Source: Shimia sp.
Lineage (GTDB): Bacteria > Pseudomonadota > Alphaproteobacteria > Rhodobacterales > Rhodobacteraceae
Assembly (NCBI GenBank): GCA_024224295.1
Contig: JAAENN010000177.1
Span: 79 to 64,078, forward strand
Direction: 5' to 3'
Length of the DNA: 64,000 bases
A program made the translations under genes and the position numbers. How positions within the stretch are numbered: position 1 is the first letter of the stretch; each line of letters opens with the position of its first letter. Below the pieces are notes generated by a model that ran no database searches, was not told the DNA's origin, and saw only the letters and a program-made list of their open reading frames with translations. This document shows, piece after piece, positions 1 to 6,524 of this stretch.

Positions 1-1062
1 CGCGATATGGGCCAGTGAGGTGAGCGAGGCAGAGATGCCTTGCAGCTCGCCCTGAGCGTCATCGGACACGCGACTGGACATGATGCTTTGCAGCGCGGGT
101 AGGCCTATGGAGGAGAGCGCGGCAACGGGAATGCCGATGAACAAGAGGATGCCGTTGGAGATCACGGCGAGGTAAATCAGAGCCACAACTTCCAGTCCAA
201 GACCGATAACCACCGTGCGGCGATTGCCAAACCATTTGGTCGAGGGGCCAATCAGGGTGGCCTGCACAATGGCAAAGCAGAGACCATAGGCGGTGAGGCT
301 GAGGCCAATCATGGCCTCTTCCCAGCCAAAACGCTCGATGATGAAATAGGGCCAGATTGCCGGGTAGACGGCTGCGGCGATCTGATAGAAGAAAAACACA
401 ATCAGCAGGTTGGTCATGGACGGCAGTTTGCCGAGGGACTGCAGTGCGCCCAGCGGATTGGAACGCCGCCATTCAAAGGCGCGTCGGTTGGCGTCGGTTA
501 CGGTTTCCTTGAGGACCATCCATCCCAACAGAGCGTTGCCACCGGCCAGCGCTGCGGCGGCCCAGAACGGTGCGCGGGTGCCAAATTGGCCCATAAAGCC
601 TCCCAAGGCGGGGCCAAAAACAAATCCAACCCCCATGGCCGCGCCGATCATACCGAAGGCTTTGGCCTTTTCTTTGGCGTCCGACATATCTGCCATATAG
701 GCCATGGCGGTAGCATAAGTGGCCGCGGTGATCCCTGCCACGATGCGGCCAATCACCAGAATCCAGATGTTATGCGCAAAGGCCATGATCACATAGTCCG
801 CCGACATCACCGCCAGCGACACCAGCAAAACTGGACGGCGGCCAAAGCGGTCGGAAAGATTGCCCAAGAGCGGGCCGCAGAGGAATTGCATGAAGGCAAA
901 GACGGTGGAGAGAATGCCCCCCCAAATGGCCGCGGCGCCAAGGTCGCCGCCGGTCACCTCTTGGATGAGGTCGGGCATCACCGGGATGATCAGACCAATG
1001 CCCATGGCGTCAATCATCACCGTGGCCAGAATCACAAATATTGGCAGACGGTTGCGCATCAT
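1..1062 (-). CDS. TetA-like MFS drug:H+ antiporter (TCR/Tet family), 3' end runs off the window
   Basis: Not in the ORF track; I translated it from ATG 1062: MMRNRLPIFVILATVMIDAMGIGLIIPVMPDL... It has MFS motif A (GNLSDRFGRRPVLL), GRIVAGI and GFVFGPALGG, and the frame is open to position 1. Confidence 0.88.
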   Translation of the reverse strand, partial: MMRNRLPIFVILATVMIDAMGIGLIIPVMPDLIQEVTGGDLGAAAIWGGILSTVFAFMQFLCGPLLGNLSDRFGRRPVLLVSLAVMSADYVIMAFAHNIWILVIGRIVAGITAATYATAMAYMADMSDAKEKAKAFGMIGAAMGVGFVFGPALGGFMGQFGTRAPFWAAAALAGGNALLGWMVLKETVTDANRRAFEWRRSNPLGALQSLGKLPSMTNLLIVFFFYQIAAAVYPAIWPYFIIERFGWEEAMIGLSLTAYGLCFAIVQATLIGPSTKWFGNRRTVVIGLGLEVVALIYLAVISNGILLFIGIPVAALSSIGLPALQSIMSSRVSDDAQGELQGISASLTSLAHIA

Positions 1063-1232: not shown

Positions 1233-1994
1233 TTAGGCGGTAGCCATGTTTAGAAGCGACAGGCTGCTGAGCGCGATTTGCGGCACATAGAGGGGCTCGC
1301 TGGCGGCATCCGAAGTTTCTTGGAACAGGGCGTTCAGGCCAAGGAGCTGAGCGTGCAAGGCGGCATTCTCTGGGGAGGTCGGGGCAGACGTTGCAGCGCT
1401 GTCGCCCGACAGCGTGAGCCAGTTGGCAATGGTGCGGATGGGCACGCGAGTGTCTTGCGGCGCGCCAAGCTTAAGGGCTTCGCCGATGGCAGTGCCGATG
1501 TCGGGCGCTTCCGTGAAGGCCACCCGCAGGCAGGTTTCCCGGATCATCCGCAGATCGGCCAGAAAGGTGGCACGTGCGTCGCTCTCAGGCAAATTTTTCA
1601 GCGCGGTTTCGGCTTGTGTGAGAAGCTGGCGTAGGCGCAGCATCAGCGCTGTGTCGGCCACGTCTTGCGGATTGGCGTTGTGCAGGATGTATTTGCTGTG
1701 GTCCGGCGCTTCCATGGCTTTGTCAAAGGCCGCCACCAAAGCAGGGATGTAGCTGCCATCCTTGGCAACACCATCTGCAAGCCCTGCTGGGTCGATCTGC
1801 ACTTCCATTGCGCTGCGATGGATGAAAAAGGCGCTGTCTTCCGGGATGTCGCCACGTTCGGTCTGCACCTTGGCCAGCGTGCCCAACACCAGCAAAGCGG
1901 CGCGGATTTCGGCGCTGTGGGTGAACAGGCGGGCCGCTTCGCCCACCGGGTAGAGCTTGGTGAACATCGGGCTGTCAAAAACGGAGGCAGTCAT
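1233..1994 (-). CDS. Shortened fumarase/aspartase-superfamily protein, PcaB (3-carboxy-cis,cis-muconate cycloisomerase)-like, catalytic regions degenerate
   Basis: The N-terminus MTASVFDSPMFTKLYPVGEAARLFTHSAEIRA...AMEVQIDPAGLA...QDVADTALMLRLRQ matches Roseobacter PcaB-like lyases. It is only 253 aa and has no SSxMPxKxNP signature. Confidence 0.72.
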   Translation of the reverse strand: MTASVFDSPMFTKLYPVGEAARLFTHSAEIRAALLVLGTLAKVQTERGDIPEDSAFFIHRSAMEVQIDPAGLADGVAKDGSYIPALVAAFDKAMEAPDHSKYILHNANPQDVADTALMLRLRQLLTQAETALKNLPESDARATFLADLRMIRETCLRVAFTEAPDIGTAIGEALKLGAPQDTRVPIRTIANWLTLSGDSAATSAPTSPENAALHAQLLGLNALFQETSDAASEPLYVPQIALSSLSLLNMATA

Positions 1995-1998
1995 AGGG

Positions 1999-2721
1999 TT
2001 AATCTTTCAGGATTTGGTCGATCAGCGCGGCAAGGCCGGTTGGATCCGCAAAGAAGGGGGAGTGGCTGGTGGGCATCTCATAGACGTCTGCCGCGGGCCA
2101 GTCCTTGGTCATGGTGACCTGAAACTCTGGGGGGATGGTTTGGTCATTGGCGCAACGGATGTAGCTGCGTGGGGTTTGGCGGTGGCCGTCACCCAGCGTG
2201 ATTTTGGTGTCTTGGGCGGCGATGGATTGCGGCGTGAGGTTTGCCAGCGCGAAGTCGGCGGTGCCATCGGGGCAGTCGTGATAGAAGGAGACGCGCACTT
2301 GGGAAGGATCGATGGTGTAGCTGAGGCCGTCCGCTGATTTCACCACGGCTTTCATCAGCGGCTGACGCGGCGCGGCGCGGCGCATTTCGGCCAGCGAGTA
2401 GCCATCCCACGGCGCATAGGCGCAGAGGTAGATCAGGCGGGCGATTTTGTTTGCGCCGTTTTCATGCGCCATATCTGCGGCGCGGGTGATCGGGAAGCCG
2501 CCCCAGCTGTGGCCCAGAACGATGGTGTCCTCTCCAAGTGCATCGACAATGGACTGCGCGCAGCTGTCCAGAGACACGTCTTCCACAGGCGTGGTGTCGG
2601 CACCGTGGGAGGGCATGTCGATGGCGCGGGCGGTGTGGCCGAGGGCCTCAAGTGCGGGGATCAGGTCGCGGAAGCACCAAGCGCCATGGCTGGTGCCATG
2701 CACAAGAAGGATGTCAGACAT
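1999..2721 (-). CDS. Alpha/beta-fold hydrolase (methylesterase-like)
   Basis: HGTSHGAW oxyanion region, GHSWGG nucleophile elbow, C-terminal HSPF. Confidence 0.88.
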   Translation of the reverse strand: MSDILLVHGTSHGAWCFRDLIPALEALGHTARAIDMPSHGADTTPVEDVSLDSCAQSIVDALGEDTIVLGHSWGGFPITRAADMAHENGANKIARLIYLCAYAPWDGYSLAEMRRAAPRQPLMKAVVKSADGLSYTIDPSQVRVSFYHDCPDGTADFALANLTPQSIAAQDTKITLGDGHRQTPRSYIRCANDQTIPPEFQVTMTKDWPAADVYEMPTSHSPFFADPTGLAALIDQILKD

Positions 2722-3502
2722 GGCCGGTTTCTTTCATGAAGTCAGTGAGCAGCGCGGCGTATTCGGCGGGTTTCTCGACGCAAGGCAGGTGGCCGGTGCG
2801 GCGCAGGAGTTCCAGACGTGCGCCGGGGATCAATTCAACGGTTTCGCGCACCAGATCAGACGGGGTGGCGCCGTCCTCAGATCCGGCAATGCCCAGCGTG
2901 GGCAGGCGCAGGCCTGAGGTGGGTGTGTAGAAATCCGTGCCTTGGATGGCGGCGCAGCAACCGGCGTAGCCTTCCGCCGGGGTGCTTTCCAGCATGGCTT
3001 TCCAATGGGTCAACTCTGGACGGGTTTGGAAATCCCTCGAGAACCAGCGCAACATGATGTCAGCGGACATGGCGGGCAGGCCTTTGGAAGTGACCATGTC
3101 GATGCGATCTTGCCACATTTTGGGAGAGCCGATTTTGGCGGCAGTGTTGGATAGCACCATCGCACGCGCCAAATCGAGGCGTTTTACCGCGAGGCCTTGC
3201 GCCACCATGCCACCAATCGACAGGCCGACGACCAGCGCGTCTTTGACGTTGAGGTGCTCCAGCAGGGCTTCGGCGTCTTTCACCAGCGTGCCCATAGAAT
3301 ACGGCGCGGGGCGCACCTCACTTTCGCCGTGGCCGCGCATGTCGTAGCGGATGATGCGCAGGCCCTCGGGCAGATGTTCCAGGATCGGGTCCCAGAGGTG
3401 CAGCGTGGTGCCCAGAGAATTTATGAAGAGCACCGGCGCGCCGTTTGGGTCGCCCTCGTCGCGGTAGTGGGTGTTGATTTGGTTCAGTTTGGCGATTGGC
3501 AT
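2714..3502 (-). CDS. pcaD: 3-oxoadipate enol-lactonase
   Basis: FINSLGTTLHLWD, RYDMRGHG, GLSIGGM, GSEDGATP, GHLPCVE. Confidence 0.8.
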   Translation of the reverse strand: MPIAKLNQINTHYRDEGDPNGAPVLFINSLGTTLHLWDPILEHLPEGLRIIRYDMRGHGESEVRPAPYSMGTLVKDAEALLEHLNVKDALVVGLSIGGMVAQGLAVKRLDLARAMVLSNTAAKIGSPKMWQDRIDMVTSKGLPAMSADIMLRWFSRDFQTRPELTHWKAMLESTPAEGYAGCCAAIQGTDFYTPTSGLRLPTLGIAGSEDGATPSDLVRETVELIPGARLELLRRTGHLPCVEKPAEYAALLTDFMKETGHV

Positions 3503-3504
3503 GG

Positions 3505-4707
3505 TCAGTCTTGGTCGTCTGTTTTGAGGCGCATATGGGCCATGATTTGCCCGTGGTCAGAGGCGAGCTTGTTATAGGGCGCTTCGGCGTGGCTGCCATC
3601 GGTGAGATGGTCGTTGAGCACGCTGAAGTATTCCATGTCGCCGAGGCGGTCCGGATTGTCCGGGTGGAAGTGCTGGCTGAGATAGATTTGATCGATGCTT
3701 TCGTAAACCCCTCCAAACGCCGTGGTGTAGACCATATCGCGCAGAGATTTGCGGGTGAACAAGGCTTCGGCGGAGGTTAGGCGGACGGAGGTAACGGCGT
3801 CTTGGATGGCGTCGTTTTCGCGGCGACTGTAGCGGTCATTGGCGTGTTTGGCATCGTGGCGCAGCATCCAGCTGTAGTTGCGGAAGGGCACTTCGCCGGA
3901 GATGATTTCGGAGCTGACCGCATGTTCGCCGTCGTTGAAATCACCCAGCACCATGACAGGTCGGCCTTGGTTGAGTTCGTCTACAATGGCGCGGCGCAGG
4001 ACCCAGGCTTCGGCCATGCGGCGCAGGGCGGCGCGCATGGCGCCCATGGCGCGGCCCAGTGGGTCGTAGTTGGTGAGGTCAGCTTCTGACGCTTTCCCGT
4101 CGGCGTCTCGGGTGAACTCGCCCAGTTTGGATTTGAGGTGGCAGTTGAAGACAGTGATGATTTGATTGCCAACCGGGATGCGCGCCTTCAGGATCGGGCG
4201 GGAAGTGCGGCGCAGGACAAAGGCGCCGGAGTCGTCGCCATCTAGGCCCTGGAAGGGGATTTCAACCGGGGTGTTCAAGTCTTGGATGATCTCGGGTTGT
4301 TCGGCAAAGCCATAGCGCGAGAGGATAGCGACGCCGGGGCGGCGTTTGCCGGGTTCGCCGGTGTCGTTCACGTTGGGCGCGACAAACAAGCCGCCGTCGC
4401 CGTAAGGTGTGTAGCCCAATTTGCGGAAGATGGCTTTGCGGTGGTAGCGCTTGGATTTGTCGGGGATCACAGCCTCGTTGGAGGCTTCGCCAATGCGGTC
4501 GGCCTCGTCAATGACGGCGCGCAGGGAGGGTTCGTCAAAGATTTCCTGAAAGCCCACGATGTCGGCGTCCATGGAGAAGAGCTGGCTGGCGGTCCAGTCC
4601 TCTTTCCAGGCGTGTTCCTCCGGCGTGTAGGATTGGAAGGTGTAATATTCCTGATCCGGACCAATCAGGTTTTTTACGTTGAAGGAGGCGATGGTGAAAT
4701 TGGTCAT
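3505..4707 (-). CDS. Endonuclease/exonuclease/phosphatase (EEP) family protein
   Basis: IASFNVKN, DIVGFQEI, NCHLKSK, VLGDFND, IDQIY, C-terminal SDH. Confidence 0.9.
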   Translation of the reverse strand: MTNFTIASFNVKNLIGPDQEYYTFQSYTPEEHAWKEDWTASQLFSMDADIVGFQEIFDEPSLRAVIDEADRIGEASNEAVIPDKSKRYHRKAIFRKLGYTPYGDGGLFVAPNVNDTGEPGKRRPGVAILSRYGFAEQPEIIQDLNTPVEIPFQGLDGDDSGAFVLRRTSRPILKARIPVGNQIITVFNCHLKSKLGEFTRDADGKASEADLTNYDPLGRAMGAMRAALRRMAEAWVLRRAIVDELNQGRPVMVLGDFNDGEHAVSSEIISGEVPFRNYSWMLRHDAKHANDRYSRRENDAIQDAVTSVRLTSAEALFTRKSLRDMVYTTAFGGVYESIDQIYLSQHFHPDNPDRLGDMEYFSVLNDHLTDGSHAEAPYNKLASDHGQIMAHMRLKTDDQD

Positions 4708-5682
4708 TTACGGGAACCTTTTGAGAGCATCAGCAAAAACATCGGCGTCGACGTTGCCGCCGGTGCAGACGGCAACCACTGTGTCGCCTTCGATTTTGTC
4801 GCCGTGAAACAGAGCAGCGGCCAGGGCGCAGGCGCCGCCAGGTTCGGCGACGATTTTCAAGCGTTTGAAGGCGAGGGACATGGCCTGCAGCACCTCGTCT
4901 TCACTCACCACAAAGCCGGGGCCAACTAAACGTTGCAGGATTGGGAAAGTGAGATTGCCGGGCTGGGGCGTGATGATGGCGTCGCAGATGGAGCCGGTTT
5001 CACTGGCATTGCGCTGGATGCTGCCGGTTTCCAGCGAGCGCGCGGTGTCGTCGAAGCCTTCGGGCTCAGACGGGCGGGCGCGCAGGTTGGGGGCTTCGGC
5101 CTCCAAGGCCAAAGCGATGCCCGCCGTGAGACCACCGCCACCGCAACAGGCAATCACGTCGCCGAAGGTCACGCCAAGATCGGCGGCTTGGGCTGCGATT
5201 TCCAGACCCACGGTACCTTGGCCTGCGATCACCTGCGGCTCGTCATAGGGGCGGATCAAGGTCAGGCCGCGCTCCTCGGCGATCTTGTTGCCCACCTCTT
5301 CGCGGCTTTCGCCACCGGCGCGATCATAGAGCACCACTTCGGCCCCCAATGCGCGGGTGTTGTCGATTTTTAGCTTCGGCGCATTTTGCGGCATGATGAC
5401 CACCGAGGGCGCGCCGTGCGCGGTGGCGGCTGCGGCAACACCTTGCGCATGATTGCCTGAAGAGAAGGCGATCACACCGCGTTTGCGGGTGGCCTTGTCC
5501 ATGGCGGACACGGCTGACCAACCGCCGCGAAACTTGAAAGACCCGGTGTGTTGCAGACATTCGGCTTTCACCAGCACGCGGCGACCAGCGATGTTATCCA
5601 AGAACGGCGAGGTCAGCATGGGGGTGACACGGGCGTGGCCTTGGATTCGTAAAGCGGCGGCACGGATCATGTCGATGTTCAT
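4708..5682 (-). CDS. PLP-dependent threonine/serine dehydratase family protein
   Basis: TGSFKFRG PLP-lysine motif, SSGNHAQG, CGGGGL. Start moved to ATG 5682, which overlaps the upstream stop (ATGA). Confidence 0.9.
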   Translation of the reverse strand: MNIDMIRAAALRIQGHARVTPMLTSPFLDNIAGRRVLVKAECLQHTGSFKFRGGWSAVSAMDKATRKRGVIAFSSGNHAQGVAAAATAHGAPSVVIMPQNAPKLKIDNTRALGAEVVLYDRAGGESREEVGNKIAEERGLTLIRPYDEPQVIAGQGTVGLEIAAQAADLGVTFGDVIACCGGGGLTAGIALALEAEAPNLRARPSEPEGFDDTARSLETGSIQRNASETGSICDAIITPQPGNLTFPILQRLVGPGFVVSEDEVLQAMSLAFKRLKIVAEPGGACALAAALFHGDKIEGDTVVAVCTGGNVDADVFADALKRFP

Positions 5683-6524
5683 GCGGGCTCTCCGGCGGGC
5701 AGTTGGGCGATCCATTGGTGCAGCACGTCAAGGCTTTCCGGTTCGTCCAGGAAAGGCACGTGGGCGCGATCTTTGACTTCCGCGGCCAGCATCGGCGCGC
5801 GGGACTGCATCTCGGTGAAGGTCTCTTGGCTGAGAATGTCGGAGTTCTCACCGCGTAGGACGGCGAGGGGTCGGTTTTTCAGCTTGTCAAACTGAGGCCA
5901 CATGTCGCCTGCGGGGGCTTTGGGATCAAATTCGGCCAGCACCGCGTTGCGCAGTTTGGGGTCGTAGTTGATGTTGAGGCCGTCGCTAGTTTCAATAAAG
6001 TGGTGCGCGGCCTCTTCTGCCCAACGGCTGGGGGGCACGTTGTGAAAGCCGGGCAGGCGGGTGGCGAGGGCTTCGGCGGCTTCGGCGCGGGTGGTCCAAA
6101 CCGGTTTGCGGCCGATGAAGACAAGGATGACTTCGAGCCCGTCGGTTTCGATCACCGGTCCCACGTCGTTGAAACAGACACCAGTGATGCGGTTTGGGGC
6201 CATCTCCGTCAACGTCAATGCGATGAGGCCGCCACGCGAGGTGCCAAGGATCGCGGCTTTCTCGATGCCCAGATGATCGAGTAGTTCCTGTGAGTCTTGA
6301 GCTTCGCGCAGGAGATTGTAGGTGGTGAAATCTTCGGCCCACTCCGATTGGCCCCGGCCACGGTAGTCCATGCGGATCACGCGAGCGTCTTTGAGGTGGG
6401 GTCGCACGTAGTCAAAGTCGCTGGCATTGCGGGTAAGGCCGGAGAGGCAGAGCACAATTGGGCCGGGCCCGCCGGTGTCATCATAACAGAGCGACAGGCC
6501 GTCAGTGGTGGTGAAATGGGGCAT
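5679..6524 (-). CDS. Alpha/beta-fold hydrolase
   Basis: CLSGLTRN, DYRGRGQS, GTSRGG nucleophile motif, AHVPFLDE. Confidence 0.88.
   Translation of the reverse strand: MPHFTTTDGLSLCYDDTGGPGPIVLCLSGLTRNASDFDYVRPHLKDARVIRMDYRGRGQSEWAEDFTTYNLLREAQDSQELLDHLGIEKAAILGTSRGGLIALTLTEMAPNRITGVCFNDVGPVIETDGLEVILVFIGRKPVWTTRAEAAEALATRLPGFHNVPPSRWAEEAAHHFIETSDGLNINYDPKLRNAVLAEFDPKAPAGDMWPQFDKLKNRPLAVLRGENSDILSQETFTEMQSRAPMLAAEVKDRAHVPFLDEPESLDVLHQWIAQLPAGEPA

Follow-up and report, generated by a model that had tools for sequence, protein, structure and literature searches.

The locus and its neighbours

The window, a stretch of 64,000 nucleotides from a Shimia sp. contig, carries on its minus strand a run of genes in which a pcaD-type gene is followed by a gene for an alpha/beta hydrolase, a short gene derived from pcaB and an MFS transporter gene (Table 1). 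The short gene is an open reading frame of 253 codons plus a stop, with an ATG start and no internal stops, that begins 4 nt behind the stop of the hydrolase gene, just as the preliminary description had it; this spacing suggests coupled translation. The hydrolase ORF in turn overlaps the pcaD ORF by 8 nt. On the other side, after a gap of 170 nt, comes the MFS gene, whose place downstream of the lyase or of the short gene is conserved. The assignment of pcaD is confident (TIGR02427, 299 bits against a cut-off of 255.85). Promoter and terminator scans gave no signals above chance.

Table 1. Features of the locus by position in the window, and the parts lost from the short protein relative to the 442-aa form of PcaB
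Feature	Positions	Strand	Evidence or content
MFS transporter gene, cut by the window edge	1..1062	-	ORF list, synteny
Short PcaB-derived gene	1233..1994	-	ORF list, partial NCBIfam matches, collinear hhalign match, synteny
Domain 1, about aa 1-108, intact	1671..1994	-	AlphaFold2 secondary structure, conservation, dN/dS 0.06-0.10
Degenerate catalytic region 1, aa 104-110, HNANPQD	1665..1685	-	Alignments, conservation comparison
Shortened five-helix bundle, aa 109-253, without domain 3	1236..1670	-	AlphaFold2 models, hhalign, Foldseek
Junction of deletion 1 (approximate), about aa 138-141	1572..1583	-	About 35 aa lost: region 2 (TPMxARTxGQxATxTSFG) and its beta-hairpin
Loss of about 11 aa			GAAGTxxALGP
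Loss of 4 aa			SWHT
Junction of deletion 4 (approximate), about aa 203-207	1374..1388	-	About 31 aa lost, including the catalytic serine loop GSSTMPQKQNP
Loss of about 10 aa			HQRDGAAW
Loss of about 98 aa			C-terminal domain (domain 3)
Alpha/beta hydrolase of 240 aa, SABP2 / hydroxynitrile-lyase (methylesterase-like) family	1999..2721	-	Pfam Abhydrolase_6, PDB sequence matches, synteny
pcaD-type 3-oxoadipate enol-lactonase	2714..3502	-	TIGR02427, synteny

Every short-form locus that we examined has pcaD directly upstream of the short gene, or with the 240-aa hydrolase alone in between. Genomes with the short form and genomes with the full-length form of the lyase have the gene order pcaD, 240-aa hydrolase, lyase, MFS in common, both in the genus and family-wide. 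In Cognatishimia activa (name as given by the source) the short gene comes directly after pcaD and has no adjacent hydrolase or MFS gene.

Further features of the neighbourhood were recorded. By PDB sequence matches the 240-aa hydrolase is closest to enzymes of the SABP2, hydroxynitrile-lyase, polyneuridine-aldehyde-esterase and pyrethroid-hydrolase types; its relatives are mostly plant methylesterase-like enzymes, and the gene is missing from the pcaD/short-gene position in several genera. Genes are tightly packed upstream of pcaD, where the same strand (3505-6524) encodes a 400-aa protein of the EEP family, a PLP-dependent PALP enzyme of 335 aa and a further alpha/beta hydrolase of 281 aa; the PALP and hydrolase ORFs, as listed, overlap by 37 nt. 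The gene string HAD, hydrolase, PALP, EEP, pcaD is found again in another Shimia, and the string HAD, hydrolase, EEP, pcaD, without PALP, at the Cognatishimia locus.

Descent from PcaB and the parts lost

PcaB (EC 5.5.1.2) is an enzyme of aromatic degradation. The proper full-length comparator for the short protein is the roseobacter-type PcaB of 437-445 aa encoded at the same locus, not the other PcaB of this genome, which has 355 aa and belongs to a type 33-36% identical to the 442-aa lineage. In hhalign all 253 columns of the short protein are collinear with residues 1-344 of the 442-aa enzyme (probability 100%, E 3.4e-86). Since every column finds its place in the full enzyme, a C-terminal half made of new sequence is ruled out. 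The short gene also occupies the same slot, between pcaD and hydrolase on one side and the MFS gene on the other, and is the positional orthologue of the 442-aa PcaB; this orthology and the adjacent pcaD tie it to the pca genes. Domain 1 is 67% identical to that of the nearest full form, from Shimia.

Family models recognize the N-terminal part of the protein and nothing beyond it. The NCBIfam PcaB models match from residues 1-135 to 1-159, in agreement with the PcaB-like N-terminal domain of the preliminary description, at scores far under their cut-offs: 79.5 bits (E 2.3e-22) against 371 for NF004631, 59.7 against 355.75 for TIGR02426 and 50.2 against 595 for NF006554. Pfam Lyase_1 (PF00206) has no match in the 253-aa protein even at E<=1, and precomputed Pfam annotation lists PF00206 in the full forms and '-' in every short form. 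In a sequence search of the PDB, residues 1-132 alone align to the Agrobacterium CMLE 2FEL. Database searches returned relatives of two types, the first of 248-267 aa, 41-88% identical across the whole length and named by the source as Shimia or Cognatishimia, the second of 437-443 aa with Lyase_1 and named as other Shimia species, Salinihabitans, Tateyamaria and others. The helices beyond the N-terminal domain that had seemed to resemble the family by eye, PIRTIANWL, LGLNALFQ and VPQIAL, do have counterparts in the full-length enzyme, where PVLRIADWL, GLLSTLQ and LPQIAL align with them.

Relative to the 442-aa form the short protein lacks 189 residues, which the alignments to full-length relatives and the profile-profile comparison (hhalign) resolve into five internal in-frame deletions plus the C-terminal domain; the exact gap boundaries differ by a few residues among alignment methods. 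The several in-frame deletions with an open frame, the HNANPQD reading of region 1, the absence of region 2 and of the SSxMPxKxNP signature and the missing C-terminal domain had all been noticed beforehand, and the comparison with full-length relatives bears them out, with region 2 and the signature both falling inside mapped deletions. Region 1 is an invariant HWGATSQD in the full forms; here it reads LHNANPQD, and it is variable among short forms. H104 and G106-D111 are at least 90% conserved solely in the full forms. The region 3 signature, GSSxMPxKxN, is deleted here and in all short forms examined. That the catalytic serine loop might be there in divergent form had been raised as an objection; in the alignments the loop is deleted, which rules this out.

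In the class II fumarase superfamily the active site is formed by regions 1-3 contributed by three subunits. None of the three regions that mark the Lyase_1 superfamily (region 1 being H-x-G-x-T-S-x-D) is found intact in the short protein. The protein is a PcaB descendant stripped of its catalytic equipment, and from the lost motifs we predict that it has no cycloisomerase activity.

The short protein is predicted to be compact and well folded. An AlphaFold2 model of the short form, based on 51 short-form sequences, has a mean pLDDT of 94.7 and a pTM of 0.91; the model of a full form, P0047, has a pLDDT of 91.5. The best PDB matches found by Foldseek are the three solved bacterial CMLEs (2FEL/2FEN, 1Q5N, 1RE5), with TM scores of 0.76-0.84 normalised to the query and of 0.80-0.84 for 2FEL, 1Q5N and 1RE5, and the top matches overall are CMLE, Tad1, CreD and ASL (TMq up to 0.84). 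The predicted model keeps the fold of the Lyase_1 superfamily, in which a helical domain at the N-terminus precedes a central bundle of five helices, with the helices of the bundle shortened. Domain-1 helices are identical between the short-form and full-form models. The main helices of the bundle run from 109-133, 139-154, 183-203, 208-226 and 230-252 in the short form and from 109-145, 165-190, 234-261, 286-308 and 317-347 in the full form, so that in the models all five central helices have been shortened and the hairpins are still equal in length. We read the models as indicating that the deletions take away the active-site loops at both ends of the bundle and trim each flanking helix, leaving a shorter, matched bundle.

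Constraint and distribution of the short form

We estimated dN/dS by NG86 on codon alignments, a rough pairwise estimator at the dS of 0.3-0.9 that applies here. Over the whole gene, six pairs that are independent in the phylogeny yield 0.10-0.15 (upper bootstrap limits reach 0.24), and short forms at unsaturated distances yield 0.10-0.16. In independent pairs residues 1-135 give 0.06-0.10, and residues 136-253, the shrunken helical part, 0.11-0.18 in the five pairs with dS estimable. On the same columns, short and full forms give 0.117 vs 0.114 for the N-terminal part and 0.174 vs 0.244 for the C-terminal part; the full forms are no more constrained there, so the parts that were retained are not relaxed. 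For the same genome pairs the median is 0.115 for pcaD, 0.140 for the hydrolase, 0.110 for the MFS gene and 0.153 for the short gene. All 14 short-form species of the genus have kept an unbroken frame, over synonymous divergence near or past saturation. An antisense gene that imposes conservation of the frame is unlikely, as dS of the short gene (0.35-0.88) is not below that of its neighbours. These values indicate that purifying selection keeps the short gene, at a strength like that on the neighbouring genes. The preliminary description had argued for selection over random decay and would have given this up for a form unique to its strain with dN/dS near 1; the short form is present in 14 of 34 species and its dN/dS is far below 1. 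Distribution and dN/dS together rule out a strain-specific pseudogene, and catalytic motifs lost, purifying selection and a fold that is predicted to be kept mark the protein as a probable pseudoenzyme.

Comparing conservation between the two forms, we found 40 positions conserved at 90% or more in both, most of them in domain 1. Another 44 positions conserved to this degree in the full enzymes have lost conservation in the short forms, including all of regions 1-3, and four are conserved solely in short forms. The 40 shared positions against four that are specific to the short forms point to an old property that was retained and not to one newly invented. Short and full forms share 13 conserved polar residues. 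Conserved residues of domain 1 that include H59-R60, E64 and Q66 are not shared with the aligned Agrobacterium or Pseudomonas CMLE sequences.

The polar residues could also be taken as a relocated or new active site, built from domain 1, by which the protein would still act as an enzyme on another substrate of the pcaD/hydrolase/MFS locus. R31, Q44, R60, E64, Q66, D68, H99, R120 and R122 are conserved in short forms, H59-R60, E64 and Q66 are specific to the subfamily, and pseudoenzymes with migrated catalytic residues are known (PMC10211241). However, the full-length enzymes conserve these residues to an equal degree, so that they are not new, conservation was gained at only four positions, no other enzyme family was matched in Pfam, NCBIfam or Foldseek, and the site of the superfamily needs three regions that are all deleted or degenerate here. 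We consider such an enzyme very improbable.

In the genome of the window (G000) the protocatechuate genes lie on another contig, C118, where pcaQ is divergent from pobA-pcaC-pcaH-pcaG-X-pcaB (L010:8212-14125). X encodes a protein of 277 aa matching NF053568 with 469 bits, a 3-oxoadipate:acetyl-CoA acetyltransferase, the BKACE-type alternative to PcaIJ. The PcaB of this cluster has 355 aa and scores 447 bits with NF004631, against the cut-off of 371. This separate protein covers the PcaB reaction in the genome. The cluster has no pcaD, and the pcaD of the window is the sole one found in the genome at E<=1e-40.

Across the genus we surveyed 34 species and grouped their genomes by the state of the lyase gene. 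The short form is present in 14 genomes, 12 of which have a 355-aa PcaB (one, G021, with an internal stop) and 12 pcaH; G007 and G014 have the short form and neither of the two. Eleven genomes carry the full form, none with a 355-aa PcaB and four with pcaH. In one genome, with pcaH and no 355-aa PcaB, the lyase gene is cut by the contig end, and in eight the gene is absent (355-aa PcaB in four, pcaH in four). Full form and 355-aa PcaB are thus complementary in their distribution within the genus. In a second lineage, G155, which has a 317-aa form, a 355-aa-type PcaB and pcaH are also there. The internal stop in G021 (G021:C1:1012409-1013440) is a TAA, which may reflect a pseudogene or a sequencing error.

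On a tree of pcaD, the short-form species and four of the species that lack the gene make up one clade with 99% support, with the four as a nested subclade. In these four the gene is cleanly gone, with 121-400 bp from the hydrolase to the MFS gene, and they still carry pcaHG and the 355-aa PcaB. The clean loss in this subclade shows that the short gene is dispensable in some backgrounds. The pcaD orthologue of the locus is found in 34 of 34 genomes and pcaH in 21 of 34, and the pcaD copy at this locus may have a role beyond protocatechuate catabolism. Since pcaD persists without any lyase in eight genomes of the genus, PcaD is not strictly dependent on the lyase or the short protein. Four genomes of the genus have a second pcaD that adjoins pcaH.

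Tetramers of the class II fumarase fold assemble via the central helices, all five of which the short form keeps in shortened version, and 12 of the 14 short-form genomes of the genus have a 355-aa PcaB. The short protein might then act as a regulator of the 355-aa PcaB, or of another member of the superfamily, by entering mixed tetramers of lower activity, with the half of the bundle that is retained as the contact. Five genomes (G007, G014, G134, G200 and G298) speak against it, as they keep the short form without pcaH or any PcaB above about 125 bits. So do the identity of merely 33-36% between the two lineages and the four species that run pcaHG and the 355-aa PcaB with no short form. We hold such regulation to be very improbable.

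Displacement by the 355-aa PcaB is insufficient as the sole trigger of the shrinkage, both because these five short-form genomes have no pca pathway and because 7 of the 11 genomes with an intact 442-aa enzyme lack pcaH. Nor, given the seven genomes that keep the intact enzyme without pcaH, is the trigger simply loss of the protocatechuate pathway. The intact proteins of these seven have 438-444 aa (L026, L027, L029, L032, L033, L036 and L037, from G033, G002, G008, G004, G022, G031 and G010), and L026, the one that was aligned, has its catalytic motifs intact.

Beyond the genus, a search of one genome for each of 400 Rhodobacteraceae genera found a homologue in 183, nearly all of about 440-450 aa, and short forms of 317, 278, 239 and 237 aa in at least four further genera. 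In a profile search of 1.84 billion representatives, about 37 clusters (50% identity) of 237-340 aa match the short profile end to end. The named members, with names as given by the source, are all roseobacters, among them Salipiger pentaromativorans (340 aa), Epibacterium ulvae (283 aa), Pseudoruegeria (276 aa) and Cognatishimia. The serine loop and the region 2 core are missing from all aligned members, deletion lengths vary, and the largest forms retain the last helix of domain 3; by these alignments the proteins of 237-340 aa make up a graded size series. In a PcaB otherwise of full length, L063 (G078:C2) of 409 aa, from a genome without pcaH, the catalytic motifs are intact and the sequence from about residue 345 is unrelated to the C-terminus of the enzyme, which looks like a frameshift in domain 3, possibly early decay or an assembly error.

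The graded series can also be seen as ongoing erosion from 340 to 237 aa, and a single genus shows the gene full, short and absent, with absence falling within the clade of short forms, as might be expected of a functionless remnant on a slow path from full length to loss. In such a remnant the open frame would be a matter of chance alone, or would persist because polarity in the operon, or a product that is misfolded or frameshifted, does harm. Yet dN/dS of 0.10-0.15 equals that of the bona fide neighbours and shows no relaxation on the retained columns, the 14 species and about 37 clusters all have an unbroken frame, 13 polar residues are conserved in both forms and the fold is predicted with very high confidence. 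Selection against misfolding alone would not keep surface polar positions or so low an omega. We therefore hold a remnant to be improbable.

Small trees unite the short forms. In a tree of 66 sequences, even when built from domain 1 alone, all 27 short forms fall in one clade (support 97/90). With 41 short and 32 full representatives, the best tree needs nine changes, and the Epibacterium short form pairs with a 446-aa enzyme with 98% support. By domain-1 identity most short lineages compared are closest to a full-length enzyme, the protein studied here being 67% identical to the Shimia full form vs 44-62% to other short lineages. An AU test does not reject a single short-form clade (p 0.11; p 0.22 on the pcaD tree). 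On balance the trees suggest, at modest strength, that the shrinkage was repeated.

Proposed role and comparison with known systems

The explanation that we favour, with a probability of roughly 70%, is that the short protein is a shrunken descendant of PcaB that has lost its catalytic regions by in-frame deletion, keeps a predicted fold and is held by selection, across many marine Rhodobacteraceae, in a non-catalytic role. Catalysis at the pcaD-hydrolase-lyase-MFS locus would no longer have been needed, so that the active-site loops could be trimmed away, and a property already present in the ancestral enzyme, seated in domain 1 and the base of the bundle, would have held the remaining protein under selection. 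We ascribe this property to the ancestor because the constraints that are retained are a subset of the ancestral ones, and its location in domain 1 also fits the conservation of H59-R60, E64 and Q66, which the aligned Agrobacterium and Pseudomonas CMLEs do not share.

The likeliest candidate for the property is protein binding or scaffolding, in the form of self-assembly, of docking to a protein encoded in the same operon, or of both. This is a guess, with the odds against it, in which PcaD would be the first candidate partner, given its upstream position at all short-form loci examined. A wider proposal, which we put forward as possible and at present somewhat unlikely, is that domain 1 and the bundle base give the 442-aa PcaB itself a second function that is not catalytic, for example as a partner or regulator of PcaD, and that the enzyme has been trimmed independently, in frame, to a scaffold of 240-340 aa wherever catalysis became unnecessary. 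If this is true, an enzyme would have been miniaturised convergently into a pseudoenzyme, and living relatives would still show many of the intermediate sizes.

A search of the literature gave no descriptions of truncated PcaB-like proteins, and to our knowledge bacterial pseudoenzymes are poorly documented. In the case described here a whole active site appears to have been removed by coordinated in-frame deletions, with a helix bundle that is shortened and, according to the models, still foldable. The living relatives of 340-237 residues offer a natural series in which the reduction of a large oligomeric enzyme fold can be followed, and the findings point to a possible second role of PcaB in roseobacters that has gone unrecognised. 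They also bear on annotation, as the beta-ketoadipate pathway can be falsely completed in metabolic reconstructions of marine bacteria; G007, G014, G134, G200 and G298, with no pcaH and no working PcaB, are examples of this risk.

The closest known system is the roseobacter 442-aa PcaB, which shares with the short protein its slot (pcaD, hydrolase, lyase, MFS) and, at the 67% identity given above, domain 1. Unlike it, the short protein has 253 aa, a degenerate region 1 and no regions 2 or 3, no domain 3 and none of the motifs GAAGT, SWHT and QRDGAAW, which do not vary among full forms. The long-'missing' pcaB of Roseovarius nubinhibens (ISM_RS06170) is at a separate locus and was confirmed genetically in a 2025 study (PMC12442348). 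The Agrobacterium-type CMLE (2FEL/2FEN, a chain of 359 residues) is the best structural match of the predicted model (TMq 0.76-0.82), and together with the 355-aa PcaB of this genome it represents natural family members without domain 3. These, however, are active enzymes that keep the three catalytic regions and full-length helices, whereas the short protein keeps no catalytic region and its helices are about one third shorter.

In birds, delta-1 crystallin is an inactive paralogue of argininosuccinate lyase that serves as a structural protein of the lens. It belongs to the same superfamily and is kept for a non-catalytic role, as we infer for the short protein (for background on delta-crystallin see PMC2779060). 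Delta-1 crystallin, however, is of full length, has catalytic regions that are almost unchanged and is still a tetramer, whereas in the bacterial protein the loops have been physically deleted and the predicted fold shortened, apparently more than once.
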